From Clostridia bacterium (GTDB taxonomy: Bacteria; Bacillota; Clostridia; Oscillospirales; Acutalibacteraceae), in the NCBI GenBank assembly GCA_017410605.1, contig JAFQQN010000005.1, forward strand, positions 108,741 to 172,740: a stretch of DNA of 64,000 bases. Reading direction: 5' to 3'. Of the stretch, positions 2,807 through 62,884 are shown one piece after another. Numbering within the stretch: the first letter of the stretch is position 1; each line of letters opens with the position of its first letter. The notes below the pieces were generated by a model that saw only the letters and a list, made by a program, of their open reading frames with translations, searched no databases and had not been told where the DNA came from. Position numbers and translations under genes: made by a program.

Positions 2807-4114
<1,308 letters not shown>

Positions 4115-5228: not shown

Positions 5229-5229
5229 C

Positions 5230-5258
5230 ATTGTACCACTTATAAACACAAAAGTCAA
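5230..5258 (-). promoter_or_regulatory. SigA-type promoter for rplU
   Basis: Minus strand TTGACT, 17 nt spacer, TACAAT. Confidence 0.65.
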
Positions 5259-20942: not shown

Positions 20943-20985
20943 TAAATTATCTCCTTATTTGATAAATTTTATGTAAATCAAGCCT

Positions 20986-21534: not shown

Positions 21535-21950
21535 TGTTCCACCGCCGTTATGCCTGTTTCTTCCTTTATGATTTTTGACGCTAAATCAAACTGTTCATCC
21601 TTTTCAAGGGTTAATAATACCCTTTTAATACTTATGCTGCCGTCTTTCGTTTTATCCGTATCAAGCTCTATTTTTATAGGGCGAATATGGTTTTTTAAAA
21701 GTATTTGTGATATGGCAACCGTGACAGTAGAGTCTGCTATTTTAGTTTCTGTCTGTTCTATGTTGCCTTCGGTATCTAAATTAAAATCTACATTAAAATC
21801 TGCCGACAAAACTGCAACAATTAAAGAAGAAATAAAAAATATGCCCAAAGCATATTTCATAACCTTTTCCATTTTTCCTTTTGGGCACAAAAAGAAAAGC
21901 GCGGCCGATATTACACATATTACCGTTATAGAAAGTATTATTCCCTTCAC
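21531..21950 (-). CDS. spoIIIAF: Stage III sporulation protein AF
   Basis: I prefer the GTG start at 21950, which overlaps the spoIIIAE stop. The ORF-track version extends to 22034. Confidence 0.7.
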   Translation of the reverse strand: MKGIILSITVICVISAALFFLCPKGKMEKVMKYALGIFFISSLIVAVLSADFNVDFNLDTEGNIEQTETKIADSTVTVAISQILLKNHIRPIKIELDTDKTKDGSISIKRVLLTLEKDEQFDLASKIIKEETGITAVEQ

Positions 21951-23068
21951 TAGCCTACCCCCGAAACTACTGCTACCGAGATAATATAAAGCATACCTAT
22001 AAATACGGTACTGCCAAGCAAAATGGTAACACAAAAATCAATAGACTCAAAAACCGTAGCTATGCCCTTTATTTCAAAGAAGTCTGCCACCAAGCGGCAA
22101 ACAGCAAAGCTAAGACGCCAACAAAAAAGGCTTATTACCATTGGCAAAAGAATTGCGGCTATGGCTATAATACCGTAAATTCCTATGCCACTTTTTAATA
22201 TTCCAAGGCTACCCCTGGCGGTATTAAGAGTTTCGGCCAAGGTAGGCCCCATAATTGGAAACACACCTGTTATAATTGTTTTCGAGGCTCTAACGGCTAT
22301 ATTATCCCCAGCGGCGGCCACAGCAGTTTGCATTCCCAAAACAGAGGAAAAAACTCCCGATGCAATTCCTAAGAACCATAAAACCCCTTTTTTAATATAT
22401 CCGCACAGCCTTACAACGCCCCCTAAAGGTGATATACCTGCGCCCAGCCCTAAGCACATAACCGAAGTTGCCGCAGGAACCAAAATATAAGAAGACAGCA
22501 AAGACATTGCATCTAAGGACATAATAAGCATTGTAGAGGCACCGGCTGAGGTTGCTGTATAACCGAACGCCGTGATAACCCCACAAAGGCAAGGAATAAA
22601 AACAACCAAAAAAGAGCTTAAAGCCTGAAGCACCGCACTACATCCCGTTAACAACTGATATAAGCTGTTAAAATAGACTAAGACTACCGAGAATATAATA
22701 AATATGTTATATGCGCCATAATTTTCTTCTAAGGGAACTGTGGCATTAATTAAAGAAAAAATCATAATTATGCCTACAGCCGAAAGGGTAATTTTAAAGG
22801 GTTCTTTAATGCCGTTTTTAAAGCAGTTTATAATTACTGTAATAATGCTTTTAAAATCAGGTGGCGAAAACTCTTCTGCCGAAGAAATATTAAGACCAAT
22901 ATCTTCTAAAATTTTTTTAGCACTATTATCTAAAGCATCATAGCTTTCCCTTACCTCTGAGGCTGAAAACTGTTCTTCATAATAATCATCTAGTTGCTCG
23001 GCGCAAACATTAGAACAAAGTAAGGTAGTAAATAAAATCATCAGCGAAAATAGTTTGATAAATTTCAT
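21950..23068 (-). CDS. spoIIIAE: Stage III sporulation protein AE
   Basis: 372 aa polytopic membrane protein in the conserved operon position. Confidence 0.85.
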   Translation of the reverse strand: MKFIKLFSLMILFTTLLCSNVCAEQLDDYYEEQFSASEVRESYDALDNSAKKILEDIGLNISSAEEFSPPDFKSIITVIINCFKNGIKEPFKITLSAVGIIMIFSLINATVPLEENYGAYNIFIIFSVVLVYFNSLYQLLTGCSAVLQALSSFLVVFIPCLCGVITAFGYTATSAGASTMLIMSLDAMSLLSSYILVPAATSVMCLGLGAGISPLGGVVRLCGYIKKGVLWFLGIASGVFSSVLGMQTAVAAAGDNIAVRASKTIITGVFPIMGPTLAETLNTARGSLGILKSGIGIYGIIAIAAILLPMVISLFCWRLSFAVCRLVADFFEIKGIATVFESIDFCVTILLGSTVFIGMLYIISVAVVSGVG

Positions 23069-23072
23069 ATTT

Positions 23073-23462
23073 TCACCGCATTAAAGAAGAGGCTAGTTCT
23101 AAAACCTTATTTATAAGCGGAAGTGTTAGAATAAAAACCGCCGCTCTGCCGCCAAGCTCTACTCTTCCGGCAAGAGATGTTTGTCCAAAATCTGCACACA
23201 GCTCTGATGCAAATTTTGTTATATAACAAATTCCAAAGGCCTTTAGAACATAAAAAATAAGATTAGACTCTACACCGTACTCCTCGAGTCTTCCAAGCAA
23301 AGACTTAAGGGGAGAAATAACATTTAAAAAAATATACCCCAAAAGCATTGCGCAGACCACGGCTGATAAAAACAAAGCATATTCTGGTTTGCTTTCCCGT
23401 AAAAAAACAATAAGCACAAGAGCCACCAAAACAAAAGCAACCGTTTTAAGCATAGCAGTCAC
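23073..23462 (-). CDS. spoIIIAD: Stage III sporulation protein AD
   Basis: 129-aa membrane protein. Operon order supports the call. Confidence 0.85.
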   Translation of the reverse strand: MTAMLKTVAFVLVALVLIVFLRESKPEYALFLSAVVCAMLLGYIFLNVISPLKSLLGRLEEYGVESNLIFYVLKAFGICYITKFASELCADFGQTSLAGRVELGGRAAVFILTLPLINKVLELASSLMR

Positions 23463-23657
23463 CTACAACCCAAAAAGGTCTTTTATTGTGTCGAAAAGCT
23501 GTGCTATAACCTGAACCACCATAAACAGAACAACAACCAAGCCTGCAAGGGTAGTAAGCATTGCCTGATCCTCTCTGCCGGATCGTGTTAATAGTTGATT
23601 AAGCACTGCAACTATTATGCCTATAGCGGCTATTTTAAAAACAAAATCTATATCCAT
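23463..23657 (-). CDS. spoIIIAC: Stage III sporulation protein AC
   Basis: 64 aa. MDIDFVFKIAAIGIIVAVLNQLL... Confidence 0.85.
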   Translation of the reverse strand: MDIDFVFKIAAIGIIVAVLNQLLTRSGREDQAMLTTLAGLVVVLFMVVQVIAQLFDTIKDLFGL

Positions 23658-23715
23658 TTTACAATCCTTTCCGCTCGGGATTTAGCAGAAAACCGTTTTT
23701 ATTCTTATTGATTTT

Positions 23716-24213
23716 CTATATAAGTATAATAAATATTACGGCACTCAGAGCCATAGAAAGCCCCAAACTAAGCCTACTTTTTTCTGTTTTGACCGACTCT
23801 TCCTTGGTTTTGATTCGTTCAAATTCTGTAAAATAAAATTCACAAAGCTCTATTTGTCCCTTTATATCGCTTTGTCCAAGGCTGGCAAAAAATTCACTGA
23901 GAAGAAAAATCTCATCTTCCTTTAAAAGAGCGGGTTTTATTTTTTTCAAAGCTTCTAATATGTCGTTATAGTTTCTTTTTTTCATAACCGACCTTATTAT
24001 AAGCTTTACATCTTTTGAAAAGCCCGGCTGTGAATGTAAAAATGAAAGAAGCCTATCAAGCTCTGTTTGTGTAAAGCGTATTCGCTCTTTTACGGTTAAA
24101 ATAAGCTGAACTATCTCTATAAGCAGGGTGGTTCTTCGGTTTAGGTGTATATATTGCCCTATACCCCAAGAAACAGGTATGACCGATAACAGTAAAATTC
24201 CCAACAGCTTCAT
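23716..24213 (-). CDS. spoIIIAB: Stage III sporulation protein AB
   Basis: 165 aa. Operon order supports the call. Confidence 0.8.
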   Translation of the reverse strand: MKLLGILLLSVIPVSWGIGQYIHLNRRTTLLIEIVQLILTVKERIRFTQTELDRLLSFLHSQPGFSKDVKLIIRSVMKKRNYNDILEALKKIKPALLKEDEIFLLSEFFASLGQSDIKGQIELCEFYFTEFERIKTKEESVKTEKSRLSLGLSMALSAVIFIILI

Positions 24214-25157
24214 TTGGTTATTTCAAGGCCGTTGGCATTATAAACCTCATAATTAAAGCCGTCTTTTTTATTACAAAACACAACCCTGTTAATTGCTCCT
24301 GTTTCAAGCAAGGCTCTGGTCTGAAGTTTTTTGCCAAGCTCCGTTACACTTCCTATATGGGCTGAGGTTATAACCGAAACCCCCGAATTCATACTTTGTT
24401 TTACCGCCTCTACCTCTGCAACATCCCCCACCTCATCAAAGGCTATAATATCGGGATAAAGGGTTCTAAGGGCTATTTCTATTCCCTTTGGTTTAGGACA
24501 AGAGGTTATTACGTCGGTGGTGCTTCCCAGGTCTGCGGTGGGAACGCCACCCTTTACGGCGGCAAGTTCTCCCCTGGTATCTACAACGGCCACCTTATAA
24601 AAACGGCCGGTCATTCCTCCGGCTAGGTGGCGAACCATATCCCTTATAAGGGTAGTCTTTCCGCTTCCCGGACCTCCGCACACCAAAATTCCACCACCGT
24701 CATAATCTTTAATTACATTTCCGGCACAAAACTTAACCTCTTTAGCTATTCTAAGGTTTATAGAAGAAATATCCCTGACAGAGCTTATTCCGCCGTCAGC
24801 ACCAACAAAGGTACCGCAAATTCCTGCGCGGTGCCCCTCTTCAAGCATAATATAACCTTCCTTTATTTCTTCACTATGGGAATATACCGAATGGTTACAA
24901 AGCTCTCTAAAGGTTTGCTCTATCTCTTCGGCCGAAACAATTAGCATATCTGCCTTAGGAAGCATTGAGGTACCGTTTTTCAGAATGAAAAATTGGCTAT
25001 TCCCCACCGTTATGGTAAGGGGTCGCCCGGCTCTAAGCCTTATTTCTTCTGCAGAATATTTAAGCTCTTTTTCTAACCTAATTAGTCTTGCAGAAATTCT
25101 TTCAGGCAGATAATGTAAAACGCTATCAAATCTTTTTAGTGAATAATCCTTGTCCAT
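24210..25157 (-). CDS. spoIIIAA: Stage III sporulation protein AA (ATPase)
   Basis: GGPGSGKTT Walker A motif. First gene of the operon. Confidence 0.9.
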   Translation of the reverse strand: MDKDYSLKRFDSVLHYLPERISARLIRLEKELKYSAEEIRLRAGRPLTITVGNSQFFILKNGTSMLPKADMLIVSAEEIEQTFRELCNHSVYSHSEEIKEGYIMLEEGHRAGICGTFVGADGGISSVRDISSINLRIAKEVKFCAGNVIKDYDGGGILVCGGPGSGKTTLIRDMVRHLAGGMTGRFYKVAVVDTRGELAAVKGGVPTADLGSTTDVITSCPKPKGIEIALRTLYPDIIAFDEVGDVAEVEAVKQSMNSGVSVITSAHIGSVTELGKKLQTRALLETGAINRVVFCNKKDGFNYEVYNANGLEITK

Positions 25158-26003: not shown

Positions 26004-26666
26004 TTATTTGCGAATAACTATATTTTGCATACTTTTAACTATGCAGTTTTCGGGCAGAACCCCTCTTACAGAGGTTAGGGGATATACAGAAGTGTTTTTT
26101 CCTATTACCGTACCGGGGTTCAAAACACAGCCACAGCCTACATCTGCCTCGTCACCCAAAATTCCACCTATTTTTCTAAGACCGGTTTCGTAGTTCTCAT
26201 CGCCCTTAATTACAACGGATTTTCCGTCTGCTTTAAGGTTAGAGCAAATAGAGCCTGCGCCCATATGAGCATGATTACCCAAAACCGAATCACCAACATA
26301 ATTATAATGAGGCACCTGAACTTTGTCAAGTAAAACTGCATTTTTCATTTCGGTTGAATTGCCGATAACGCAGTCTTTTCCTGTTATTACAGCGCCCCTT
26401 ATAAAAGCACCAGGGCGAATTTCACAACCCTCACCAATAATAGTAGGGCCAATAAGGGTAACATTGGGATAAATTTTTACACTGTTATGAACCCACACAT
26501 CTTTTTCTATTTCGTTATACCCGTCAAGACCGTTGGCTATAAGTGTTTTTATATAGTCTTTTATTTTGGGCAACATCTCCCAAGGATACTCTGCCTCATC
26601 AAAAAGTGGCTTTAAATAAGGTGTTTCACAACAAAAAAGGTCACAAGTTTTTACTTTTTTATTCAA
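26004..26666 (-). CDS. Left-handed beta-helix (hexapeptide-repeat) transferase-like protein
   Basis: Hexapeptide repeats (IGEGCEIRPGAFIRGAVITGKDCVIGNS...). It resembles the C-terminal half of GlmU / sugar-nucleotidyl-transferase proteins. Confidence 0.6.
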   Translation of the reverse strand: MNKKVKTCDLFCCETPYLKPLFDEAEYPWEMLPKIKDYIKTLIANGLDGYNEIEKDVWVHNSVKIYPNVTLIGPTIIGEGCEIRPGAFIRGAVITGKDCVIGNSTEMKNAVLLDKVQVPHYNYVGDSVLGNHAHMGAGSICSNLKADGKSVVIKGDENYETGLRKIGGILGDEADVGCGCVLNPGTVIGKNTSVYPLTSVRGVLPENCIVKSMQNIVIRK

Positions 26667-28281
26667 CTGAATATCCTCCGTTTGTTATTTCTTTAGCAAT
26701 TATTTCGGCAAACTCTTTACACTTTTCTTCGCTTTCAGCCTCAATCATAATTCTGATAACCGGCTCAGTTCCGCTTTGACGAAGCAAAGCTCTACCGTTG
26801 CCGTCAATAAGCTCTTCAACCTTTTTAAGAGCTTCATTAACGTTAGCATCAGCCAAGGTTGCGGCCTTGTCCTTAACCCTGATATTTTTTGTATACTGAG
26901 GGTAAAGGTTCACAGGCTCTGCCAATTTGCCCAGAGTGGATTTTCTGTCGCACATCTCTTCGGCTAACATAATAGCTGTTAAAATTCCGTCACCTGTGGT
27001 GGCATACTTTTTAATGATTATATGACCCGACTGCTCACCGCCAAGGGCATAATCGTTTTTCTGCATACATTCATATACAAAGCGGTCGCCTACAGTAGTT
27101 TGAACACACTTCATACCCGCCTCATCAAGACCCTTTACAAAGCCGCTGTTAGACATAACTGTTGCAACAACGGTATCGTCATTTAACATTCCCTTAGACT
27201 TAAGGCGTTTGGCCAAAATATACATAATCTTATCGCCATCAACAAGACTGCCATTCTCATCTACAGCAAGGCATCTGTCTGCATCTCCATCAAAGGCAAA
27301 ACCAACATCTAAATGCTTTTCTTTTACCAGGTTACAAAGCTTTTCGGTATGTGTTGAACCGCAACCATTATTTACATTAAGGCCATCAGGCTCGGTACCA
27401 ATAACAACAGTTTTTGCTCCCAAAGCGTCAAAAACCGATTTGGCTATCATCCAAGAGGCACCGTTAGCTGAGTCGAGGCCTATTTTAAGATTTTTATAAG
27501 AGTTTGAAGCAAGGGAAATAAGGTAACCTAAATAGCGGTTTCTTCCCGAAGAATAATCTATAATTCTTCCTATTCTTTCTCTGTGGGCTAAAGGAAGATC
27601 ATCTCCGGTTACACCGAGATAATTCATATCGCCGTCAATATAGGCTTCAATGTAAGAGGTTGTGTCGTCGTCAAGCTTTTCCCCAAAACGGTTGATAACC
27701 TTAATTCCATTATCGTAAAAAGGATTGTGAGATGCAGTTATCATAATTCCGCAATCAAATTCATCCTGACGGGTAACATAAGAAACGCTTGGGGTAGTGG
27801 TTACGTGAAGCATATAAGCATCGGCACCCGAAGCAGTAATGCCGGCAACAATAGAATATTCAAGCATATAGCTAGAAAGTCTGGTGTCCTTACCTATAAC
27901 AATTCTTGGGCGATAATTGGTTTTTGTGCAGCCCGAAAGCTCTGAAGAAAAATACCAACCCAAAAATCTTCCTACACGGTAGGCCTGCATTGAGGTGAGG
28001 TCTTTATTTGCCTCTCCGCGAAAACCGTCGGTACCAAAATATTTATTTTGTCTTTTTTCACCGGTAGCCTTAGTGTTTATTGATATTTTGTTTTGTAAAA
28101 GCTCATCAGTAGACAAATTAAAAAGCTCTGCTAACTGCAAAACCTTATCAATCTGCGGCAATGCCTGATCCATTTCCCATTTAGAAACCGATTGTCTTGA
28201 AACCTCTATTTTTTCTGCAAGTTGCTCTTGAGAAATTCCGGCAGATACACGAAGCTTACATATTTTTTCGCCGATTGTCAT
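26659..28281 (-). CDS. glmM: Xre-type HTH domain fused to phosphoglucosamine mutase
   Basis: Start set at MTIGEKICKLRVSAGISQEQLAEKIEVSRQSVSKWE (HTH_3-like). This is followed by YFGTDGFRGEAN and the TASHNP phosphoserine loop of GlmM. Confidence 0.85.
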   Translation of the reverse strand: MTIGEKICKLRVSAGISQEQLAEKIEVSRQSVSKWEMDQALPQIDKVLQLAELFNLSTDELLQNKISINTKATGEKRQNKYFGTDGFRGEANKDLTSMQAYRVGRFLGWYFSSELSGCTKTNYRPRIVIGKDTRLSSYMLEYSIVAGITASGADAYMLHVTTTPSVSYVTRQDEFDCGIMITASHNPFYDNGIKVINRFGEKLDDDTTSYIEAYIDGDMNYLGVTGDDLPLAHRERIGRIIDYSSGRNRYLGYLISLASNSYKNLKIGLDSANGASWMIAKSVFDALGAKTVVIGTEPDGLNVNNGCGSTHTEKLCNLVKEKHLDVGFAFDGDADRCLAVDENGSLVDGDKIMYILAKRLKSKGMLNDDTVVATVMSNSGFVKGLDEAGMKCVQTTVGDRFVYECMQKNDYALGGEQSGHIIIKKYATTGDGILTAIMLAEEMCDRKSTLGKLAEPVNLYPQYTKNIRVKDKAATLADANVNEALKKVEELIDGNGRALLRQSGTEPVIRIMIEAESEEKCKEFAEIIAKEITNGGYSVE

Positions 28282-28300
28282 AAATTTTGCCTCTTTTCTT

Positions 28301-28314
28301 ATTCGTTTACGAAT
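28301..28314. promoter_or_regulatory. Perfect 14-bp palindrome, a candidate operator for the HTH-GlmM fusion
   Basis: ATTCGTTTACGAAT, 20 nt upstream of the start codon and next to the SD. Confidence 0.35.
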
Positions 28315-28590
28315 ATAGTATGCTTTAAACAGCAATTATATAATATCAAATTTTTCAGCGACTTACCACCAACCGAACCTTGACTCGTTCGCTACCTTTA
28401 GTTGCTTTTACACGCATTTCTGCGATAAATTTTTTTTAAAAACCACTTTTGAGCCAAAATTTTGCCAACTATCGTTGTCAAAACCTTGTTTAGGTGTAAA
28501 TAATTTCCACTTTTAGTATAACCCTTACGATGTAAAATAGTCAATAAAATTTATTTTTACAAAAATATATAAGCAACCCGCAGTTTACTA

Positions 28591-32315: not shown

Positions 32316-32693
32316 ATGGATATTAACGAACAATTAACCAAGCTTTTAAGCTCCCCTGAAACGGTAGAACAGCTAAAAAAAGTTGCCGGTGAGTTTTTAG
32401 GAAACGATACCCCTGCACCTCCCCAGCCCCAAAGTAGCGGTGGGTTTTCACTTCCCCAGGGTCTTTTAGAAAATGTTGGTAACATTGGCTCTGTTATGAA
32501 GCTTATTTCCTTACTTCAAAACGGCAAGGATGACGACCGCATAAAGCTTTTACACGCTCTTAAGCCACACTTAAGTATTAACCGCGCCAAAAGGGTTGAT
32601 AAGGCTATTTCACTTTTGAAAATTGCCTCTGTTCTTCCTATATTAAAAGAAGAGGGCTTATTAGACGGCTTGTTAGGGGGCGATATTTTTTGA
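32316..32693 (+). CDS. Hypothetical small protein (125 aa)
   Basis: ATG immediately follows the upstream TAA. Confidence 0.55.
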   Translation: MDINEQLTKLLSSPETVEQLKKVAGEFLGNDTPAPPQPQSSGGFSLPQGLLENVGNIGSVMKLISLLQNGKDDDRIKLLHALKPHLSINRAKRVDKAISLLKIASVLPILKEEGLLDGLLGGDIF

Positions 32694-33052
32694 CCGAAAA
32701 CCAAAAGGCCGAATTTGAAAGGCAAAAGCACATTTCAGAAAACCAATTAAGGGAAATGTATTACGGTAAAAATTCTTCTGGCGGATTAAAGGTTCCTCCT
32801 TTTGTTAAGGCCTCACAGCCCGAGCAAAAGGAGTCCTCTACATCCCAAACACAAACCCGCTCAAATTCAGAGCCTACCAAACCGTCAAAGCCCTCTGCAG
32901 TACCAAAAAAGCGAAATATTTTAGAGCTTATTAACCTTAAAAACCTTGTGCTTGATGATGACAGAATTTTGCTGGTTTCCCTTTGCCTTTTATTATCACA
33001 CGAAGAGGCAGATGAGCTTTTAATAATGGCGCTTATATACATAATGCTTTAA
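32690..33052 (+). CDS. Hypothetical small protein (120 aa) with a hydrophobic C-terminal tail
   Basis: TTG start overlapping the upstream TGA, with GGGGG upstream. The C-terminus is ILLVSLCLLLSHEEADELLIMALIYIML. Confidence 0.5.
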   Translation: MTENQKAEFERQKHISENQLREMYYGKNSSGGLKVPPFVKASQPEQKESSTSQTQTRSNSEPTKPSKPSAVPKKRNILELINLKNLVLDDDRILLVSLCLLLSHEEADELLIMALIYIML

Positions 33053-35641: not shown

Positions 35642-38404
35642 CTATCCTAAAGTATAGCTTTCAAGGGAAATCCCCTTATAATAATGCTTTAAAATTTGAT
35701 CATAGGTATAGCCGCTCTTAGCATAGGCATTTGCGCCTACCTGACTCATACCAACACCGTGACCGTAGCCCTTAACCGTAAATACAAACTTATCGTCGCT
35801 GGGACTGTATGATATGGTATATGCACTGGAGCGAAGAACATTTGCAGAGCCAACTCTGGCAGATGTAAAGAAGCTGTTTCTAAGGTAAGGGCCTTTTTGA
35901 ACAGAGCCACCGATGTTAACCGTTTTAACATAAAGGTTGTTTGCATCATAGGTGCATTTGAACCACTGATTTTTATCAGCAATTTGTGTAAGATCAACAT
36001 TAAGGCTTTCCTTAGCCCAATTAGCAATATCTACTGCTGAATATTTTCTAATGGTCTGATAGCCTGAAGCATTTTTATCTACCGAAGAATCAACACTTGC
36101 AAGGTATGGCAACTGGCTTGACCAAATATCTGCACTATTTGCAGTTTGTCCGGCGGAAATGGCATAATAAAAGGTTTGTGCAACGCTTCCGTTATAGGTA
36201 GCAACAATTCCCGCAACCTCGTTGGCTGCCTGTATAGCCCTTTCACCAGGAGCCTTCATAGGGGCTGTGGGGGTAGAACCACTGGCTGCACCATTACAAA
36301 GTAACCAGGAATAGGCCGCAACGGCCTGAGCCTTAAGTGCCTCTAAATGGTAGCCCGAACCCATTTCGGCCTCTAAAATATAAGCAATTATCTCATTAGC
36401 CGGGCCTGTTTCAACCTTACCGTTAAAGCTGTTTTTTACTGTAAGGGTTGGTAAAATTGATGGGTCAACAACCTGGGATGTAGTTGAAGAGGTTTGAGTG
36501 CTGGAATTTTCGGTATTAGAGGTTGCCTCTTCTGAAGAAATTTCCTCATTAGATGTTGTGATTTGAGAAGATACCTTAGAAGATGTTTCAACCTTAGAGG
36601 TTGTTATAGGCTTGGTAGGTTTAATAATAACCGTTGACGAAACCGGGCCCTCCTGCTCATATCGGCTGCTTCCGTTATCTGCCATATTTTCTTCGGCTTT
36701 ATCCTTTCCCGAAGATGTTGTAATTTGACTACTTATTTCCTCTAATGGGTTAGATGAAGTATGCTCAGAGGAGGTGGCCTCATTTGATGATGTGTCATTT
36801 AACGGTGCATCAAAATCTACCATAGGGCTTTCACCGTCCCTTACTCTTCTGGCAACAAGCACAACACTGCTTGTGTTATCCTTACAAATTAAGGTGATAA
36901 GCTCATCAGAAGCATCAACCGCAATGTTTGTTTCTATTCTTGAACGGTTTTTAACCCTTTCAACATAATCTAAAAATTCGGCATCGTCAAAAAACTGTGT
37001 TTGAACATCTAAAGAACTTCGCTCACTGGATACAGCATAAACAGAGAAGATCTTCCAGCGGTTTTCTAAATAAAGGGTATCGAAGGTAATAACCGGGGCA
37101 GAACGGTATTTTGAGTCATCTAAAAACTCTTTTAGTTGTGAAAAAACCGAAACATTGCTATCGCCTCTACCATAAATTACAATATTTCTTTCAAAAGAAT
37201 CTGCCGTAATGCGCGAATTGGTATAAGGCGTTCCGTATTTATTTACACTTCCTTCAAAAAGGTGGCTGTTATAATAATTAGACGAGTGTGATTTTGAGGT
37301 GACTATAGGAAGGCTTATATCTGTTCCCGGAACGCTTAGCCAACCAATAACATCGCTATTAGCTTGGTAAAGCCTTCCGAACTTATAAAGCATATTTTCG
37401 GGAAGCCCTGTCCAGGTTTGGCCGTAAAGCTCATGAGCCGTTGCAAGAACAGAAGAATAATGCATAGGCTGGTAGTTACATTCATAGCCAAAATAAGCCG
37501 CAATTAAAACAACCGCTGCCAGAACAACCGAAATTACTGCCCTCAATATATGTTTTTTACGCTTTTTAGGACTTGGTATCTCATCATTAGCCAAAAAATC
37601 TTCAAGATTATATTTAACAGTATTGCTGGCATCAGGTTGCTCTAATACCACAAATTCTGTTTCCTGTTCAGCCTTAGCTACAACCACACCGCCATTATCA
37701 TAGTCTTCCTTAGTGTCAAAGTTTTGGTCTTGTTCTAAGAAAGCATCAGAGTGAGGCTCGACAAGACTTGAAAGGTCTATTTTTTCATTGTCTTGAGGTA
37801 CCGATGGTTGCGCTTTCTTCTCAGCAAGTTCTTCTGACTCTTTTTTGTTATCGTCATCTTTCGCAATAATCTTTTCTTCTTGGGGTAAGAAACAAGTATC
37901 CTTTTCTTCCGGTAAGACTACCGACGAAGTGGTGATTTCCTTTTCAGAAAGTAGCTTTATATAAGGACAAACTAAAGAAGAAAGTAGCGTATGACGAAGC
38001 TCACGTTCACTAGTCAGCAAAATTATTGCTTGGTCATTATTTTCCATAACACAACCGCCAAGCTGACCCTCACCGTTTATAAGAGGAATAGCCTTTTCGG
38101 GAAGGGAATATTCCATAGAAGAGTTCACTGAAAACTCAGCCTTATTAAGCGGTGTAAGTATATACCCCGTAGCCCTTGCAATAATTTTTGGCAGATATTC
38201 GCTGTCTAAGGGATTAAAGCTTCCTATTGCCACAACCACCCTGCTACGAATAACGCTTTTGCTAAGGGCGGAAAGAAAATCGCTCTTATTGTGGGTCAAA
38301 TGGCTTAGAAAACGCATATTGCAGCAGCCGGAAATTTCAAACTCCATTTTAAAATCGGTAGATTGGTTGAAATAAATTACCTCTAAAGTAAGGTTCGGAC
38401 CCAC
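35642..38404 (-). CDS. Multi-domain membrane protein: degenerate CinA-N-like module, TM segment, degenerate class-B-sortase-like domain, Ser/Thr-rich linker and SpoIID/LytB domain
   Basis: GTG start 5 nt after AGGAGGTG. The SpoIID block is at the C-terminus (GYHLEALKAQAVAAYSW...YYAISAGQT...GHGVGMSQVGA). The sortase-like block is VIGWLSVPGTDISLPIV...VIYGRGD...LITLICKD...LVARRVR. Confidence 0.8.
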   Translation of the reverse strand: MGPNLTLEVIYFNQSTDFKMEFEISGCCNMRFLSHLTHNKSDFLSALSKSVIRSRVVVAIGSFNPLDSEYLPKIIARATGYILTPLNKAEFSVNSSMEYSLPEKAIPLINGEGQLGGCVMENNDQAIILLTSERELRHTLLSSLVCPYIKLLSEKEITTSSVVLPEEKDTCFLPQEEKIIAKDDDNKKESEELAEKKAQPSVPQDNEKIDLSSLVEPHSDAFLEQDQNFDTKEDYDNGGVVVAKAEQETEFVVLEQPDASNTVKYNLEDFLANDEIPSPKKRKKHILRAVISVVLAAVVLIAAYFGYECNYQPMHYSSVLATAHELYGQTWTGLPENMLYKFGRLYQANSDVIGWLSVPGTDISLPIVTSKSHSSNYYNSHLFEGSVNKYGTPYTNSRITADSFERNIVIYGRGDSNVSVFSQLKEFLDDSKYRSAPVITFDTLYLENRWKIFSVYAVSSERSSLDVQTQFFDDAEFLDYVERVKNRSRIETNIAVDASDELITLICKDNTSSVVLVARRVRDGESPMVDFDAPLNDTSSNEATSSEHTSSNPLEEISSQITTSSGKDKAEENMADNGSSRYEQEGPVSSTVIIKPTKPITTSKVETSSKVSSQITTSNEEISSEEATSNTENSSTQTSSTTSQVVDPSILPTLTVKNSFNGKVETGPANEIIAYILEAEMGSGYHLEALKAQAVAAYSWLLCNGAASGSTPTAPMKAPGERAIQAANEVAGIVATYNGSVAQTFYYAISAGQTANSADIWSSQLPYLASVDSSVDKNASGYQTIRKYSAVDIANWAKESLNVDLTQIADKNQWFKCTYDANNLYVKTVNIGGSVQKGPYLRNSFFTSARVGSANVLRSSAYTISYSPSDDKFVFTVKGYGHGVGMSQVGANAYAKSGYTYDQILKHYYKGISLESYTLG

Positions 38405-38474
38405 AAAAACACCTCCTGACCGGCCATAGTCTTAAGGCTATAGCATTATAAAAATTATTACTGTTACTACACCT

Positions 38475-41264
38475 TTATTGAATTAAACCTGAAGTTGAAC
38501 TTGTATTATAATCTTCATCATTCTCAGCTAAAGAAGCATCAGAAGATGACTGTGAAAATAGGTCATCAGTCTGTTCAGATGATACTTCGTTACCCACCTC
38601 AGTAGCTGTACTGTTTTCCTCTAGGTTGGCGTCTATCTTTGAAGAGCTTTCTTCTGTTAAATTACTACTTGACCCTTGCGAAGAAAACGAAGGCTTTGTA
38701 GTGCCCTTTTTTTGATACCAAATTTCAGGGTAAAGAGGAGAAGTGTTAACAGAGGAAGAAACGGCTTTATATTTATCATAACTATCGTCTCTTACCCTTC
38801 TGGCAACAACCACAAGCCTTGCCTCATCAAAGTCGTATGCACAGGTTGAAAGCGTGATTATTTCATCATCATAGGTTACATCTACATCTGTATTTATAAC
38901 ACTTCTTTTTCTTAGTTCTTCTATGAAAACCTTAAATTCCTCTTCGTTTGCAAAATTGCTTTGACGGTAATTGAATACCTCTCCATTATCATGCTCAGGC
39001 AACGTATTAGTAACAAATACCGAGAAAACCTTATATTTGCCCTCCCTATAAAGTGAGGTGAACTCAAAGGTTGGGTTTTCTTTATAAAAGTCATAGTTAA
39101 GATATTTCTTAAGCTCACCAAACATAGCACCATCGCGCATACTGTGGCCATAGATAATAAGATTTTTACTGTTTTCTAAAACACCTATTCTATTTTCGGC
39201 ATCTATAAAAAGGGCACCGTAGCGGCTGGTTTTCTTATTCATATCGTGATTGATATAAAAATCGTTATCATTACACTGATATACCGGATAATTAACCTTG
39301 GTATTATTGATTTTTAGCCAACCCTTAATATCCCTGTTTTGGTTTATAAGATTTTCAAAATCAAGTAAAATTCCTTCACCGTTCTTAATTTTCTCTTCAG
39401 TTTTATAGGTTTCGAATTCTGATGCCACCTTATTGTATTCATTTGTTTTTGAAACACTCTCGGCAAAATAATTAACAAGATATACAGTCGTTCCGATAAG
39501 TACTACAAAAGCAACAAGGAAAATTGTTTTTCTTATAGTTTCTTTAACACTGTCGCCCTTAAGGGGTAAAATTGCAGAAATAAACCTATAAAATTTCCCA
39601 TTCTTGTTAATTTTTAAAGCTTTGCGTATTTTTGTTTTCTTATAAACATTTGTTTTCACAGAGGCAGCTTGTTCATTATCAGTTTCAATGTTTTCCTTTT
39701 CAAGGCCGGTTATCATTTCGATATTACCGTTTTCGTCTTCAATTTCTAATTTTTCGGCTTTTTGTTCGAATGCCTCAAGGTAATCATCTTCGAAAACAAA
39801 GTTGGCCGCATTTTCTTCTGCCAATTTAAGCTTTTCGGGATTGGGAATATTTACGTCATCACCTATAGCGAATAAACCTTTCATTTCTTCATCAGTAAAA
39901 GCAAGTTGGTTAAGCGATGCTCTGGGAGTATTCCTTTTTTTGCTGAAAACAATGGGTGTAGTACCAGGTAAGGTATATCCCTCTATTACATCTAAAGCCT
40001 CACAGGGCAAGGTTCCTCTTGAAAGCAATTCATCACAGCCCTCTAAATATCTGCGAACCATATCTAATGCAGTAGAAGAGGCTATAATTCTTGTCTTTTC
40101 CCTATTGTTTACCCCGCACATAATTTTACGGGAAAAGACCTTATCGCCGTCGGTAATAGCAATATAAACTAAACCTGCCGGTTTTCCCTCGCTTTGGCCG
40201 GGCCCTGCAACACCGGTAATGCCTACACCAATATTGCTGCCGCACATTTCTCTAATACCCAAGGCCATTTGCGCAGCAACCTCAGGGCAAACTGCCCCCT
40301 TTGTTTCAATAATATTTTTATCTACGCCAAGTGCCTCAATTTTAATATAGTTAGCATAGGCAGTTACGCCCATTTCAAATACCTCTGAGGCACCCGGAAT
40401 TTCGGTGATTCGGCTAGATAGCATACCGGCAGTACAGGATTCGGCTGTTGCTAACTTTTTGTTTTTTTCAGAAAGAAGTTCAACAACCCTTTGCTGAAGG
40501 CTTTCGCAATTGTGACCGTAAATATTACTACCAAACTGTTTTTCTATTAGCTCAATAACCGGTTTGCACATTTCATTAGCCTTTTGCTCATTTCTTGCCT
40601 TGGCGGTAACCCTTATATCTACCTCTCCGGGCTTTGCGTAGGTTGCAACGGTAGGATTTTCTAGAGCGGTTAATTCACCACACTGCTCTGCCACTAATGA
40701 TTCACCAATGCCAAAGACCCTTATGTTATGCGAAACTATAACCTCACCACTCATGGCTGTAAGAACAGGAACAACCTTGTTTTCAAACATAGGAACAAGC
40801 TCACTTGGTGGGCCTGGAAGCAAAATCACGGTATTCTTATTGTTTTTTACAATATAACCAGGGGCCGTACCATTCTCATTTTCTAACACGGTTGCGCCCT
40901 TTATGGTAAGGGCTTGTTTTTTATTACTTTGGCTCATAACCCTGCCGGTTTTAGCAAAATACTCACTTATATGCTCTAAACTTGCAGTATGAAGTTCCAA
41001 AGGAAGACCAAGCACCTTTGCTGTTACTTCTTTTGTAATATCATCTTCCGTTGGACCAAGACCGCCGCTTAAAATAACTATCTCGCTTCGAGAAAGGGCT
41101 TGGGTTAACTGTTCGTTAAGTCTTGCACTGTTATCGCCCACAACAGACTGAGAATAAACATTTATGCCAAGCTCTGCTAAAGTTTGTGAAAGATATTGGG
41201 CATTTGTATTTAAAATGTCACCTAGCAAAAGCTCGGTTCCTACGCAAATAATTTCAGCTCTCAT
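38475..41264 (-). CDS. cinA: CinA (MoCF-binding domain plus PncC nicotinamide-nucleotide amidase) fused through a TM segment to a class-B sortase domain and a Ser-rich tail
   Basis: MRAEIICVGTELLLGDILNTNAQYLS, then a PncC-like part (ESCTAGMLS). The TM segment is TIFLVAFVVLIGTTVYLVNYF. The SrtB block is IKGWLKINNTKVNYPVYQ...IIYGHSM...ITLSTC...VVARRVR. Confidence 0.85.
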   Translation of the reverse strand: MRAEIICVGTELLLGDILNTNAQYLSQTLAELGINVYSQSVVGDNSARLNEQLTQALSRSEIVILSGGLGPTEDDITKEVTAKVLGLPLELHTASLEHISEYFAKTGRVMSQSNKKQALTIKGATVLENENGTAPGYIVKNNKNTVILLPGPPSELVPMFENKVVPVLTAMSGEVIVSHNIRVFGIGESLVAEQCGELTALENPTVATYAKPGEVDIRVTAKARNEQKANEMCKPVIELIEKQFGSNIYGHNCESLQQRVVELLSEKNKKLATAESCTAGMLSSRITEIPGASEVFEMGVTAYANYIKIEALGVDKNIIETKGAVCPEVAAQMALGIREMCGSNIGVGITGVAGPGQSEGKPAGLVYIAITDGDKVFSRKIMCGVNNREKTRIIASSTALDMVRRYLEGCDELLSRGTLPCEALDVIEGYTLPGTTPIVFSKKRNTPRASLNQLAFTDEEMKGLFAIGDDVNIPNPEKLKLAEENAANFVFEDDYLEAFEQKAEKLEIEDENGNIEMITGLEKENIETDNEQAASVKTNVYKKTKIRKALKINKNGKFYRFISAILPLKGDSVKETIRKTIFLVAFVVLIGTTVYLVNYFAESVSKTNEYNKVASEFETYKTEEKIKNGEGILLDFENLINQNRDIKGWLKINNTKVNYPVYQCNDNDFYINHDMNKKTSRYGALFIDAENRIGVLENSKNLIIYGHSMRDGAMFGELKKYLNYDFYKENPTFEFTSLYREGKYKVFSVFVTNTLPEHDNGEVFNYRQSNFANEEEFKVFIEELRKRSVINTDVDVTYDDEIITLSTCAYDFDEARLVVVARRVRDDSYDKYKAVSSSVNTSPLYPEIWYQKKGTTKPSFSSQGSSSNLTEESSSKIDANLEENSTATEVGNEVSSEQTDDLFSQSSSDASLAENDEDYNTSSTSGLIQ

Positions 41265-41300: not shown

Positions 41301-42473
41301 TTAAGCCTCTATAGTTTCAAAAATGGTTCCCTCTACTGCTCTCTCAATCATCTCTTCAAAATCTATAAGCTGCTCTGCCTTTTCTACTGCCTCAAGCTTA
41401 GGATTGGTTCTTGGGTGCTTGGGGGTAAAAACAGTGCAACAATCTTCATAAGGCTCTATAGATGTCTCAAAGGTATCAATTTTGCGAGAAATTATAACAA
41501 TTTCTTCTTTATCCATTCCAATAAGGGGGCGAAAAACAGGCATATCTACAACCTTATCTGTAGTAACAAGAGCAGGTAAAGTCTGACTTGCTACCTGGCC
41601 CACACTCTCACCTGTTATAAGAGCCATACTGCCACTGTTTTGTGCAATTCTTTGGCTTATTCTCATCATCATACGGCGCATAATAAGAGTAAAATATTCT
41701 TCAGGGCAATTATTGGCTATTGCTTCTTGAATTTCGGTGAAAGGCACAACCCCCACAGGAATAGCACCTGAATATGCTGCAACCTTTGATAAAAGCTTTT
41801 TTACCTTTTGTTCTGCACGAAGGCTTGTATAAGGAGGACTGGCAAAATGTATTGCATTAAGCTTAATTCCCCTTTTTGCCATCATCCAGGCGGCAACAGG
41901 GCTATCTATTCCGCCCGAAATAAGAATGGAGGCTCGGCCCCCTGTTCCGACAGGCATACCGCCCGCACCATGAAGCTGACCGGCCCTTACATAAGCACCA
42001 AAATCTCTTACTTCTACAGTTACAACAACATCAGGGTTATGAACATCCACCTTAAGGTGGTGATAATTTTTTAATATTTCTCCGCCTAAGGTTTTAGAAA
42101 TTTCGGGAGAAGTTAGGGGGAATTTTTTATCCGACCTTTTTGCCTCAACCTTAAAAGTTTTTGCGGCTTTAAGCGACTCCTCTAAATAAGGAATGGCAAC
42201 CTTTATAATATCTTCCATATTTTTTTCACAAACTGCCGCACGGCAATATGCCGCAATACCAAATATTTTTTCAACTCTATCAAGTGCCTTTTTAAAAGGA
42301 AAATCCTCACAGTGGGGGGTAATGATTATTGTTGACTGAGCGCGTTTAACCTCTATATTACCCAAGGCCTTAAGGCTCTGCTTTATATTTTTAATAAGAA
42401 TATCCTCAAAGGTCATTCGGTTAAGACCCTTAAGGGCAAGTTCGCCGTTTTTTATAAGTATAATTTCTTTCAT
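41301..42473 (-). CDS. thiI: tRNA 4-thiouridine synthase ThiI
   Basis: THUMP domain plus the SGGIDSPVA PP-loop. Confidence 0.9.
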   Translation of the reverse strand: MKEIILIKNGELALKGLNRMTFEDILIKNIKQSLKALGNIEVKRAQSTIIITPHCEDFPFKKALDRVEKIFGIAAYCRAAVCEKNMEDIIKVAIPYLEESLKAAKTFKVEAKRSDKKFPLTSPEISKTLGGEILKNYHHLKVDVHNPDVVVTVEVRDFGAYVRAGQLHGAGGMPVGTGGRASILISGGIDSPVAAWMMAKRGIKLNAIHFASPPYTSLRAEQKVKKLLSKVAAYSGAIPVGVVPFTEIQEAIANNCPEEYFTLIMRRMMMRISQRIAQNSGSMALITGESVGQVASQTLPALVTTDKVVDMPVFRPLIGMDKEEIVIISRKIDTFETSIEPYEDCCTVFTPKHPRTNPKLEAVEKAEQLIDFEEMIERAVEGTIFETIEA

Positions 42474-42485: not shown

Positions 42486-43628
42486 TCATCTTACGGATTT
42501 TTTAAGTTTGGCCGACGCTGCAACCAATGCCTCATATAAAATATCAATCTCTTCCTCATTCGTTTGTGAGTTAAAGCTTATTCGAAGCGCGCTATCTACA
42601 CGATTGTTTTCAAGACCCATACTTCTTAAAACATGGCTTCCTGCACCCTTACTACAAGCGCTTCCGCTAGAAACACAAATGTTATAACCCTCTAAATAAT
42701 GCAGTAAGGTTTCAGACCTGTATCCCAAAAAGGAAAAATTTAAAATATAGGGTAAGCCGTTATCAGGCGAGTTGATTACAACATTATCAAATGCCGAAAG
42801 CTTTTCTATAGCATAAGCTCTAATTTGTTTTACCCTATCATTTCTTTGCTTTATAGGGGTTAAGGCTTTTACCGCCGCCCCAAAAGCGGCAATAGCCGGA
42901 ACAGCCTCAGTGCCTGAACGAAGATTTTTTTCCTGCCCACCGCCCAAAATTAATGCCGGAAGCTTTATTCCCTTTTTCACATATAAAGCACCTGAGCCTT
43001 TTATACCGTGAATTTTATGGGCACTTATCGAAACAAGGTCTGCCCCAAAATCATTGGGCACAAGTTCTATTTTACCAAAGGCCTGAACAGCATCAATATG
43101 AAGCAGCGCCGGGGATTCTTTTTCCTTAATCATTTCTTTAACCAATTCAAAGGGTAAAATTGCTCCGGTTTCGTTATTAACCGCCATAAGGCTAACAAGA
43201 ATAGTATCTTTTCTAATGGCATTTTTAATGCTATCTAAGGGTATATTTCCGTTTTTTTCAGGTAAAAGATAAGTGACCTCGTAGCCTTTAGATTCCAACC
43301 TTTTCATAGGTTCTAAAATAGAAGAATGTTCTATTGCTGTGGTTACAATATGCTTACCTCTTCGGCACAAAAGCTCTGCCGCTCCAAAAATTGCTGTATT
43401 ATTGCTTTCACTACCGGAAGAAGTAAAATAAATTTCATCCTCGCGGCAATCTAAAAAAGAGGAAAGCTCTTCCCTTACAGAGGTAACAATATTTTCTGCC
43501 GCAAGACCCAGCTCATAAAGTGAAGAGGGGTTTCCAAATCCTTCGGTCATTGCCTCTAAAGCCGCCTGGATTGCCTCTGGGCAGGGCTTTGTTGTGGCAC
43601 TGTTATCAAGATAAATCAACCGTTTCAA
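42486..43628 (-). CDS. Cysteine desulfurase (NifS/IscS class)
   Basis: SAHKIHGIKG PLP-lysine and SSGSACS active-site Cys. Adjacent to thiI. Confidence 0.9.
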   Translation of the reverse strand: MKRLIYLDNSATTKPCPEAIQAALEAMTEGFGNPSSLYELGLAAENIVTSVREELSSFLDCREDEIYFTSSGSESNNTAIFGAAELLCRRGKHIVTTAIEHSSILEPMKRLESKGYEVTYLLPEKNGNIPLDSIKNAIRKDTILVSLMAVNNETGAILPFELVKEMIKEKESPALLHIDAVQAFGKIELVPNDFGADLVSISAHKIHGIKGSGALYVKKGIKLPALILGGGQEKNLRSGTEAVPAIAAFGAAVKALTPIKQRNDRVKQIRAYAIEKLSAFDNVVINSPDNGLPYILNFSFLGYRSETLLHYLEGYNICVSSGSACSKGAGSHVLRSMGLENNRVDSALRISFNSQTNEEEIDILYEALVAASAKLKKSVR

Positions 43629-43919: not shown

Positions 43920-44480
43920 ATGAGCATTCCCAATACAGTTAAAGAAAAAACATGTTGTTTCTCAGGCTACAGGCCTCACAAATTTAATTTTGAATTTAAT
44001 AAAAGTGATCTTAAATATATCGAGCTTGAAAGTAACATTATAAGTGCCTTATTGTCATCTATTGAGCAAGGGTATGACACCTTTTTATGCGGAGGTGCAA
44101 TGGGCTTTGACCTTTTATGCGGTGAATTAGTTCTTCTAATTAAAGAACGCTTTCCAAACATAAAGCTTATTTGTGTTATTCCTTTTTCCGGGCAAAGCAA
44201 AAATTTTCCTGCCGAATGGAAAGAACGATATGATCGTATTACAAGCCAATGTGACAGTGTTTATAAAATTTCTGAAAAATTCAGCAAAGCTTGTTTTCAT
44301 CTTCGTAATTTTGAGATGGTATATTCCTCCTCACGATTAATCACATATTTTACCGGTCGATCAGGGGGAACAGCCAACACAATAGCACTTGCACAGAGAG
44401 AAAAGCTTGATATTATAAATATAGGCCCTGAAAAGAAAAACAAAGTTGATTCAACAATAACTTATTATGTTGGACACTAA
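43920..44480 (+). CDS. DUF1273 (YpsA-like) SLOG-family protein
   Basis: CCFSGYRPHKF...FLCGGAMGFDL...GRSGGTANT pattern. Confidence 0.8.
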   Translation: MSIPNTVKEKTCCFSGYRPHKFNFEFNKSDLKYIELESNIISALLSSIEQGYDTFLCGGAMGFDLLCGELVLLIKERFPNIKLICVIPFSGQSKNFPAEWKERYDRITSQCDSVYKISEKFSKACFHLRNFEMVYSSSRLITYFTGRSGGTANTIALAQREKLDIINIGPEKKNKVDSTITYYVGH

Positions 44481-62638: not shown

Positions 62639-62884
62639 AAAATCCCCCCAATATTTTCTGTATTCATTATACATAAACAGTCCATTCTTTTCTATGTGTA
62701 TTTTAAACATTAATATGTCAAAAACAAACATAATTAAGCATCTCTTACAAAAAACGGACTAAAATATGTTTATTTTGAACAGTTGATTTTTTTGTAAAAT
62801 GCATTTATACTCAAATATAACACAACTTATAAACTAATTAAGGTTTATTTTTGCAATATTTAGAGTTAAGCAAGGGGCCATTTT

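Follow-up and report, generated by a model that had tools for sequence, protein, structure and literature searches.

The engulfment enzyme SpoIID (B. subtilis, C. difficile, and B. anthracis; TIGR02870; entries 4RWR, 5I1T, and 5TXU of the PDB) is encoded by a sporulation gene that stands alone. In LytB of B. subtilis and other SpoIID/LytB proteins (TIGR02669), a domain of this type forms the C-terminal part of a long wall protein with several domains, which shows that its occurrence goes beyond engulfment; LytB itself is secreted and relies on wall-binding repeats. Class B sortases (SrtB; TIGR03064; 2OQW, 1NG5, 4UX7, and 5B23) combine the sortase fold with an N-terminal transmembrane (TM) segment and helix, and CinA consists of a COG1058 MoCF-like domain, a KH linker domain, and a PncC domain with NMN deamidase function (4CT8, 3KBQ, and 6MR3). 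We analyzed a 64,000-nucleotide stretch of DNA (hereafter the window) from a Clostridia bacterium of the Acutalibacteraceae (assembly GCA_017410605.1, contig JAFQQN010000005.1, positions 108,741 to 172,740), in which two adjoining genes behind iscS-like and thiI genes, termed A and B, bring together relatives of CinA, SrtB, and SpoIID. A first-pass annotation, made from the letters of the window alone, had considered gene B to be a tandem duplicate of gene A, in which a CinA-like module and a catalytically altered sortase-like domain had turned into a scaffold for SpoIID. Here we describe gene B as the member of a protein family with two non-catalytic modules, a pseudo-sortase and a CinA-derived domain, followed by a SpoIID-like domain that is probably a paralogue of the engulfment enzyme.

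Gene B and its two degenerate modules

Gene B is an intact open reading frame (ORF) of 920 codons on the minus strand (Table 1). It begins with a GTG codon preceded by AGGAGG, and homologues in other assemblies share the start residue. The protein is identical to MBQ4154049.1, which is annotated as "SpoIID/LytB domain-containing protein" of a Clostridia bacterium. From the N- to the C-terminus, it is composed of a degenerate MoCF-fold domain, designated MoCF*, an acidic linker, a TM helix, the pseudo-sortase, a Ser/Thr-rich linker, and the SpoIID-like domain. Both the TM helix behind the N-terminal module, for which a single segment was identified, and the Ser/Thr-rich linker between the sortase-like and SpoIID parts had been noticed in the first-pass annotation. 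Since the sequence KKRKK precedes the only TM segment, we infer an N-in, C-out topology, which places MoCF* in the cytoplasm and the pseudo-sortase and the SpoIID-like domain outside. Homologues of gene B form at least 66 full-length clusters, every one of which stems from assemblies of uncultured Clostridia and Oscillospirales. That this architecture arose as an artefact of assembly or gene calling has practically no probability left and is already refuted, because the same 880–960-residue architecture with the same start recurs in dozens of independent assemblies (NCBI, ENA, JGI, and Logan).

The sortase region of gene B aligned with that of gene A with 26% identity over 231 residues in BLASTP (E = 8e-25), and the sortase modules of the two families, i.e., the homologues of gene B (family B) and of gene A (family A), aligned with E = 4e-57 in HHalign. 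The AlphaFold2 (AF2) model of residues 300–605 has a predicted local distance difference test (pLDDT) score of ~90 over the sortase-like domain, for which Foldseek gave TM-scores of 0.84–0.88 against SrtB of B. anthracis, S. aureus, C. perfringens, and C. difficile. A phmmer comparison of the domain with PDB sequences reached E = 1e-22, and TIGR03064 matched gene B with 106.7 bits (E = 1.1e-30), below its equivalog cutoff of 153.75. These comparisons bear out the sortase-B-like domain proposed earlier and support, at the level of sequence, a clear paralogy between the sortase modules of genes A and B.

The catalytic columns were counted in 66 family-B and 120 family-A sequences. The column of the catalytic histidine contains His in 98% of family A, whereas it contains Lys in 82% of family B and otherwise Arg, Asn, or Pro, but never His; gene B itself has R413. 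The column of the catalytic cysteine is occupied by Cys in 97% of family A and is a gap in 97% of family B, where the TLSTC box reads TLICK in gene B. The sortase arginine is found in 97% of family A and in 100% of family B (R519). Because the His and Cys columns are lost across family B while the Arg is invariant, the alignments support a family-wide pseudo-sortase instead of an accident in a single sequence. The replaced His, the altered TLSTC box, and the retained ARRVR had all been read correctly from gene B, and the pseudo-sortase status suggested from them extends to all 66 sequences. The conservation of ARRVR down to the nucleotides was also reproduced: over ARRVRD, 19 of 21 nucleotides are identical between the two genes (36836-36856 versus 38787-38807), with none such expected by chance. 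We considered gene conversion as the reason for this match and dropped it as unneeded, since the identical heptapeptide and the shared use of AGA/AGG codons suffice. The sortase-like domain might still function as an enzyme through other residues, such as the off-register Cys507 in TLICK, which the protein of the window shares with some of its close homologues (TLVCK, TLVCE, and TLICE). We regard this as highly improbable, as Cys507 is missing in most of the family, no member has the His, and the Cys column is almost always a gap.

Pairwise BLASTP between the N-terminus of gene B and the MoCF domain of gene A was marginal (E = 0.01, 20% identity), and Pfam PF00994 gave no match to the N-domain at E≤1. 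Profile–profile alignment by HHalign connected the family-B N-terminus to the CinA MoCF domain of family A with a probability of 98.2% (E = 5e-14). The alignment spans the whole length of the domain, including the CinA-specific insertion, and recovers both blocks aligned in the first-pass annotation. When all PDB sequences were searched with the N-domain profile, CinA 6MR3 came first (E = 0.009) and gephyrin next. The AF2 model of the N-domain (pLDDT 92, predicted TM-score 0.87) retrieved only MoCF-fold structures among the top 50 in Foldseek, led by FAD-synthase MPTb 8RON and CinA 3KBQ (TM 0.69/0.66) and then CinA 4CT8; the MoeA-like Glp/FtsZ structure 8BVF was also among the matches. In gene B, the MoCF signature GGLGPTxDD is replaced by GSFNPLDxEY, and the CinA motifs GTAPG and LPGPP are replaced by GQLGGC and LLTSERE at the aligned positions, while the N-domain has invariant residues of its own (TDFKMEF, RSR, and E..DQ). 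The profile comparisons and the model agree with the alignment proposed before and support a derivation of the N-domain from CinA-N. The "same layout" formerly ascribed to both genes applies to the succession of CinA-N-like, TM, and sortase-like parts but not to the rest of CinA: Pfam and NCBIfam matched no KH or PncC domain in gene B, and HHalign against the middle region of gene A found no remnants of them in linker 1.

We searched the N-domain profile exhaustively against 1.84 billion representative proteins, clustered at 50% identity, which returned 379 proteins; 246 of these reached E≤1e-30, and most have 300–480 residues. As defined by this profile, MoCF* is a family of its own with 246 clusters and without a Pfam model. 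In its short members (MoCF*-TM proteins), which are annotated as "hypothetical" without any Pfam match, an acidic linker connects the N-domain to a C-terminal TM helix that is followed by a tail of ~25 residues. Their N-domain aligns with that of gene B with E = 1e-56 in HHalign, and a hidden Markov model (HMM) of their TM helix plus tail matches 65 family-B sequences, at the TM and juxtamembrane helices, and none of the 120 family-A sequences. Residues 1 to ~325 of gene B (N-domain, linker, TM helix, and juxtamembrane helix) are the counterpart of an entire short MoCF*-TM protein.

The mean pairwise identity within family B amounts to 64% for the N-domain, 55% for the pseudo-sortase, and 67% for the SpoIID-like domain, as against 18% for linker 1 and 36% for linker 2, which makes the N-domain and the SpoIID-like domain the two best-conserved regions. 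This difference from the linkers, together with many B-specific invariant residues, shows that the dead modules are under purifying selection. The loss of catalytic motifs from both modules could also mean that they are functionless, decaying leftovers, with only the TM anchor and the SpoIID-like domain being of importance. Such decay is hardly credible for modules that are conserved like the catalytic domain among relatives with overall identities down to 33%, and of which the N-domain belongs to a large family with its own invariant residues.

Linker 2 contains a sole conserved motif, SSRYEQ ([ST]-x-[YF]-E-Q), with invariant E583 and Q584, followed ~10 residues further on by [IV]-K-P-[TSN]; its counterpart in the related locus L086 (related loci are referred to by L numbers) is GQRYEQ. 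A docking of SSRYEQ...KPT in cis onto the pseudo-sortase was considered and rejected, since the AF2 model of residues 300–605 leaves the motif disordered (pLDDT 33–41). HHalign detected no homology between linker 2 and the Ser/Thr tail of gene A.

The SpoIID-like domain of gene B

The C-terminal domain of gene B scored 142.5 bits with TIGR02669 (SpoIID/LytB domain; cutoff 83.3) and 32.2 bits with PF08486 (cutoff 23), of which profile positions 7–48 of 97 alone match. Its nearest PDB sequences are the SpoIID entries 4RWR, 5TXU, and 5I1T. TIGR02870 (spore_II_D) matched in two stretches with 161.4 bits (E = 2.9e-47) and did not reach the equivalog cutoff of 234.75. In C. difficile SpoIID, E101 is the catalytic residue, and the zinc-binding turn matters for activity (PMC6221140). 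The catalytic Glu is kept in 87/87 SpoIID-type domains compared (E680 in gene B), and the GYGHGVGMSQ motif is invariant. The SpoIID-like domain of gene B is predicted from these features to be active as a lytic transglycosylase.

The tree of SpoIID-type domains includes these 87 sequences, namely 25 from thiI-linked loci and 62 canonical short SpoIIDs, many of them from Acutalibacteraceae, Oscillospiraceae, and Ruminococcaceae. All 25 thiI-linked SpoIID-like domains form one clade (clade II) with a bootstrap value of 98/100. The segment from AAxxWLL to VAG comprises 25–30 residues in every clade II sequence (27 in gene B) and 45–58 residues (median 53) in all 62 canonical ones, and it lies partly over the part of the domain that forms the zinc-binding turn in C. 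difficile SpoIID. The SpoIID/LytB domain, called "full" in the first-pass annotation, thus falls short of the canonical form, as one of its segments has about half of the canonical median length. On account of the separate clade, the shorter segment, and the score below the SpoIID equivalog cutoff, the domain of gene B is probably a paralogous SpoIID-like lytic transglycosylase and has not emerged from our comparisons as the engulfment SpoIID itself.

The window contains a spoIIIA operon at ~20373-25157 on the minus strand (SpoIIIAA 24210-25157, SpoIIIAE 21950-23068), and the source organism is therefore an endospore former. Gene B could then be the sole engulfment SpoIID of this lineage, with the canonical short gene replaced by a CinA/sortase-anchored version. 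The retained catalytic Glu, spore_II_D as the top specific NCBIfam model, SpoIIDs as the nearest solved structures, the sporulation genes in the window, and spoIIE, ypeB, and gerA near some related loci would all be in line with such a replacement, which nevertheless appears unlikely to us. The score of 161 versus 234.75 bits and the diagnostic shorter segment set gene B apart, and so does its clade, as the canonical SpoIIDs include many from the same bacterial families. Moreover, gene B resides in an operon-like array behind housekeeping iscS-thiI genes with gaps mostly too short for a promoter of its own, and this linkage argues against a dedicated sporulation promoter. For the same reasons, the designation of the domain as "engulfment enzyme SpoIID" in the first-pass annotation could not be maintained, and what is annotated as "SpoIID" in these genomes may be a mixture of two paralogous subfamilies.

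The iscS-thiI locus, its fusion states, and a possible mechanism

Gene A is located upstream of gene B across a 70-bp gap. Its product contains the Pfam domains MoCF, CinA_KH, CinA, and Sortase, with an acidic linker between the CinA part and the TM helix, and scored 510.7 bits with NF001813 (cutoff 379) and 187.1 bits with TIGR03064 (cutoff 153.75). A cytoplasmic NAD-salvage/ADP-ribose enzyme and an extracellular transpeptidase are thereby found in one membrane protein. Among the best 120 of 641 homologues of gene A, all are CinA fusions of similar length, and 118 have a Pfam sortase. With 641 A homologues and at least 66 B clusters, the A-B pair is not limited to one assembly but is a widely conserved cluster in gut and rumen Clostridia. 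About 15 residues past the catalytic Arg, gene A contains the conserved motif N-[PT]-x-P-L-Y-P-x-I-W-Y-x-K-K-G-x-x-K-P, which loosely resembles the NPxTx sorting motif of SrtB with Pro for Thr and could, judged by this resemblance, be a pseudo-substrate or a lid. Some relatives of gene A carry PASTA repeats at the C-terminus.

The order iscS-like, thiI, A, B was found wherever a B homologue was inspected, with A-B gaps of 5–96 bp and a thiI-A gap of ≤53 bp, and A adjoins B in all inspected B loci (the window, L001, L081, L082/83, L084, L085, and L086). More generally, the module directly follows thiI in all related loci with upstream sequence; all of these loci begin with iscS-thiI, and no canonical-spoIID locus does. 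Consensus scans revealed neither a terminator-like site in the 70-bp A-B gap nor a promoter-like site upstream of gene B within it, and most orthologous A-B gaps are too short to hold a separate promoter. Gene B is thus presumably cotranscribed with iscS-thiI.

A genome collection was scanned with the generic pattern GHGVGMSQ, yielding at least 80 loci, and HMMs of our own domain alignments were run over the ORFs of the fetched loci, with Pfam applied to a subset. Three loci (L002, L011, and L026; Table 1) encode CinA, sortase, and the SpoIID-like domain in a single ORF, in which the sortase His, Cys, and Arg are intact and from which a second sortase and a pseudo-sortase are absent. Other states include a version reduced to MoCF, whose sortase is dead independently (L025), a fusion of CinA to the SpoIID-like domain in which no sortase was detectable (L004), and a further independent pseudo-sortase (L005). 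Unfused arrays with cinA or a pncC-only gene, between one and three sortase genes, and a gene for a long SpoIID-like protein occur in L005, L008, L014, L016, L018, L034, and L044. In some relatives, wall-binding domains are found beside the SpoIID-like domain, i.e., SH3_3 in L003 and three PASTA repeats in L086, which retains the pseudo-sortase alongside them. The N-termini of SpoIID-bearing proteins constitute a graded series from full CinA (L002/L026) through partial CinA (L004/L011) and weak MoCF (L005/L025) to MoCF* (family B/L003). We also noticed a 2428-residue Ruminococcaceae protein ending in a clade-II SpoIID-like domain (L010, 3482-10765). The conserved synteny and the independent fusion states strongly back a link between CinA, this sortase, and this SpoIID-like enzyme and, as Rosetta-stone evidence, speak most strongly for their cooperation. 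The undescribed link between CinA-, sortase-, and SpoIID-like modules suggested in the first-pass annotation is thus supported, including by single CinA-Srt-SpoIID proteins.

Neighbour joining placed the pseudo-sortases of B and the sortases of A in two separate clades, with bootstrap values of 100/100 and 75/100, respectively, and the A and B partners from L001, L081, and L082 were split into their respective clades. As partners from three other loci fall into each clade, the A/B split predates the diversification of these organisms. In a first neighbour-joining tree, the triple-fusion sortases were sister to the family-A sortases with a bootstrap value of only 2/100, and this placement was dropped. 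Of the tandem duplication proposed before, the paralogy of the sortase modules and the CinA-N-derived N-domain stand, but a simple recent event is not compatible with the separate clades. A whole-gene duplication of A and a domain-wise accretion are equally plausible, the latter because residues 1 to ~325 of gene B match the short tail-anchored family occurring at the same locus. In the latter case, a short MoCF*-TM protein may have gained a pseudo-sortase as well as a SpoIID-like domain and so have become gene B. The graded series of N-termini fits the CinA origin of the N-domain.

The single-polypeptide relatives have no pseudo-sortase, whereas gene B carries dead copies of both partner domains. 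For this reason, we favor, with about an even chance of being correct, a reading in which the dead modules are adaptors that tether the SpoIID-like paralogue beside gene A to act on peptidoglycan. Gene B would be an N-in, C-out membrane protein with the C-terminal SpoIID/LytB-type lytic transglycosylase domain as its sole catalytically competent part, and MoCF* and the pseudo-sortase would be non-catalytic descendants of the two enzymes fused in gene A. They would position the glycan-cutting domain next to the CinA-TM-SrtB protein by one contact on each side of the membrane, so that A and B together would rebuild non-covalently what related bacteria produce as one CinA-Srt-SpoIID polypeptide. 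The unit would be co-transcribed with iscS-thiI and act on peptidoglycan, and gene B would most likely work beside the canonical engulfment SpoIID, not in its place.

Several points weigh against this reading. Whereas the domain identities, the loss of catalytic residues, the conserved synteny, and the alternative fusion states are directly seen in the sequences and models, the contact between A and B is what we infer from them. The shortened segment at the zinc-turn region implies that activity of the SpoIID-like domain is not guaranteed, and its paralogue status would derive from the clade structure at the family level, not from co-occurrence with a canonical SpoIID within one genome. The conserved SSRYEQ motif, predicted to be disordered, is not accounted for by this reading. 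No sortase substrate gene was found near any of 20 cluster loci; in the window and 19 cluster loci, the search for C-terminal sorting signals returned just spurious out-of-frame ORFs. Furthermore, the CinA encoded beside the short MoCF*-TM protein in L088 and L089 lacks a MoCF domain of its own, and a homotypic pairing of MoCF* with MoCF therefore cannot be a general rule. Because CinA is devoid of MoCF at the loci of the short MoCF*-TM proteins, MoCF* may bind the PncC part instead.

The retention of the sortase fold and of the substrate-contacting Arg also allows for a pseudo-sortase that is independent of gene A and targets the wall by binding what sortases normally use as their second substrate, namely stem peptides or lipid II. 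The wall-binding domains at neighbouring positions in relatives (SH3_3 and PASTA) would agree with such a role, although the pseudo-sortase present besides PASTA in L086 would not, and pairing with gene A accounts better for its strict adjacency to an active sortase and for its absence from single-polypeptide fusions. We therefore consider wall targeting somewhat unlikely and the adaptor function preferable. A bolder reading, which we regard as a long shot, is that the iscS-thiI-cinA-srtB-(MoCF*)-spoIID-like array encodes a hitherto unrecognised trans-membrane machine for peptidoglycan remodelling in Oscillospirales, with CinA and its dead paralogue exerting control from the cytoplasm. If so, a sortase-family transpeptidase and a SpoIID-type glycan cutter would share one wall substrate. 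Stem peptides or lipid II might, for example, be processed or re-linked by the sortase, and the lack of a protein-substrate gene near the locus would then be accounted for. Wall remodelling would then be coupled to NAD/ADP-ribose metabolism, and CinA would have a function in the envelope.

Table 1. Positions of the features of genes A and B, their neighbours, and related proteins (window coordinates unless a locus number is given)
Feature	Position	Strand	Evidence or remark
Gene B, bitopic membrane protein	35642..38404	-	ORF; at least 66 full-length homologous clusters, 33-78% identity
Ribosome-binding site AGGAGG, 7 nt 5' of gene B GTG	38412..38417	-	sequence reading
MoCF*, degenerate CinA-N/MoCF-fold domain, residues 1-155, predicted cytoplasmic	37940..38404	-	HHalign, PDB profile search, AF2/Foldseek
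Linker 1, acidic, low-complexity, predicted cytoplasmic, residues 156-280	37565..37939	-	18% mean pairwise identity
Gene B TM helix, residues 283-306	37487..37558	-	hydropathy maximum 2.54 at residue 286
Juxtamembrane helix and class B sortase-fold pseudo-sortase, residues 307-530	36815..37486	-	TIGR03064, BLASTP, HHalign, AF2, Foldseek
R413 in the sortase catalytic His position (IYGRGD vs IYGHSM of gene A)	37166..37168	-	family alignments
TLICK replacing the TLSTC active-site box	36881..36895	-	family alignments
ARRVR, retained sortase Arg motif (R519, R522)	36839..36853	-	family B alignment
Linker 2, Ser/Thr-rich, predicted extracytoplasmic, residues 531-650	36455..36814	-	36% mean pairwise identity; AF2 pLDDT 33-41
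SSRYEQ motif in linker 2	36653..36670	-	family B alignment
SpoIID/LytB-type domain of locus-specific clade II, residues 651-920	35642..36454	-	TIGR02669, PDB matches, tree
E680, counterpart of the SpoIID catalytic Glu (C. difficile E101, in GEM/AEM)	36365..36367	-	alignment to 5TXU
Gene A, 929 residues, CinA - linker - TM - active-type class B sortase - Ser/Thr tail	38475..41264	-	NCBIfam, Pfam
Complete CinA of gene A (MoCF + KH + PncC), residues 1-408	40041..41264	-	Pfam, NCBIfam
Gene A TM helix, about residues 578-600	39465..39533	-	hydropathy maximum 2.18 at residue 580
Gene A sortase B domain, H707, C808, R822 intact	38775..39407	-	family A alignment
Gene A post-sortase motif, residues 840-858	38691..38747	-	family A tails
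thiI, directly upstream of gene A, 36-bp gap	41301..42473	-	ORF, synteny
Class V aminotransferase (iscS/nifZ-like cysteine desulfurase), first gene of the array	42486..43628	-	Pfam PF00266, E 3.4e-72
Short MoCF*-TM protein	L088 9001-10392		after iscS, thiI, PncC-only CinA, ~320-residue sortase
Short MoCF*-TM protein	L089 9001-10458		after iscS, thiI, PncC-only CinA, ~320-residue sortase
Single CinA-sortase-SpoIID-like ORF	L002 728-4156		1143 residues; CinA complete; all five Pfam domains
Single CinA-sortase-SpoIID-like ORF	L026 8423-12097		1225 residues; CinA complete
Single CinA-sortase-SpoIID-like ORF	L011 8756-12139		1128 residues; CinA degenerate

Elsewhere in the window, a YpsA/SLOG-family gene (43920-44480, plus strand) is divergent from iscS, and a homologue is present near the cluster in L088, too. 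A 558-residue ORF (26659-28335, minus strand) combines an N-terminal XRE-type helix-turn-helix with a complete phosphoglucomutase/phosphomannomutase in an unusual fusion. The search for Rfam RNA elements in the window detected just the ribosomal protein L21 leader (RF00559, 39.1 bits; 5157-5234, minus strand) upstream of rplU-to-obg (obg 2807-4078), far from the gene B locus. An 855-residue ORF (60164-62731, minus strand) has no Pfam match at 1e-5, and two small overlapping ORFs upstream of pcrA (32316-33052, plus strand) have no Pfam match either.

Comparison with known systems

Full-text literature searches for CinA-sortase fusions, pseudo-sortases, and sortase-SpoIID proteins returned nothing, and a survey of engulfment components makes no mention of such proteins. 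Each of the folds is known, whereas descriptions of the architecture, of the dead-sortase and MoCF* families, and of the conserved locus appear to be lacking. Apparently new are a natural family-wide pseudo-sortase and its fusion to a SpoIID-type domain, as well as a family of CinA-derived dead domains and a CinA-sortase fusion occurring in hundreds of protein clusters. They offer a testable lead on the cellular role of CinA and on class B sortases without substrates. All of the named proteins derive from metagenome-assembled genomes (Clostridia, Oscillospiraceae, Acutalibacteraceae, Ruminococcus, and relatives), in which envelope biology and sporulation have been little studied.

Gene B shares with SpoIID the catalytic domain family, the Glu, and GYGHGVGMSQ, as well as a predicted membrane anchor with the domain outside the membrane. 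It differs from SpoIID by ~570 additional residues before the domain, by its separate clade, by a segment shorter by ~26 residues at the zinc-turn region of C. difficile, by its sub-cutoff score, and by its position in an iscS-thiI-cinA array instead of a stand-alone gene. With LytB, it has in common the location of the domain at the C-terminus of a long multidomain protein, but it is anchored by a TM helix and has a pseudo-sortase as well as a MoCF-like domain predicted in the cytoplasm. Class B sortases resemble gene B in the fold, the N-terminal TM segment and helix, the Arg, and most core residues; unlike them, gene B lacks the catalytic His and Cys and continues into a linker and a glycan-cutting domain, with no substrate gene found nearby. 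The N-domain shares the CinA-type MoCF fold, yet its motifs are replaced, KH and PncC are absent, and it belongs to a distinct family that also exists as short tail-anchored proteins.

Repurposed or dead enzyme folds serve as scaffolds in other systems, such as the MoeA-like Glp binding FtsZ in Corynebacterium, gephyrin, and the degenerate LytM factors EnvC/NlpD. SpoIIQ of B. subtilis is likewise presented as a degenerate LytM factor (PMC4982068). Gene B resembles these scaffolds (Glp, gephyrin, SpoIIQ, and EnvC/NlpD) in the presumed use of a non-catalytic enzyme fold as an interaction module of an envelope machine, and no example with a sortase fold turned up in the literature searched. Gene B differs from all of them in having two different dead folds, predicted on opposite sides of the membrane, within one protein encoded next to their live paralogues.

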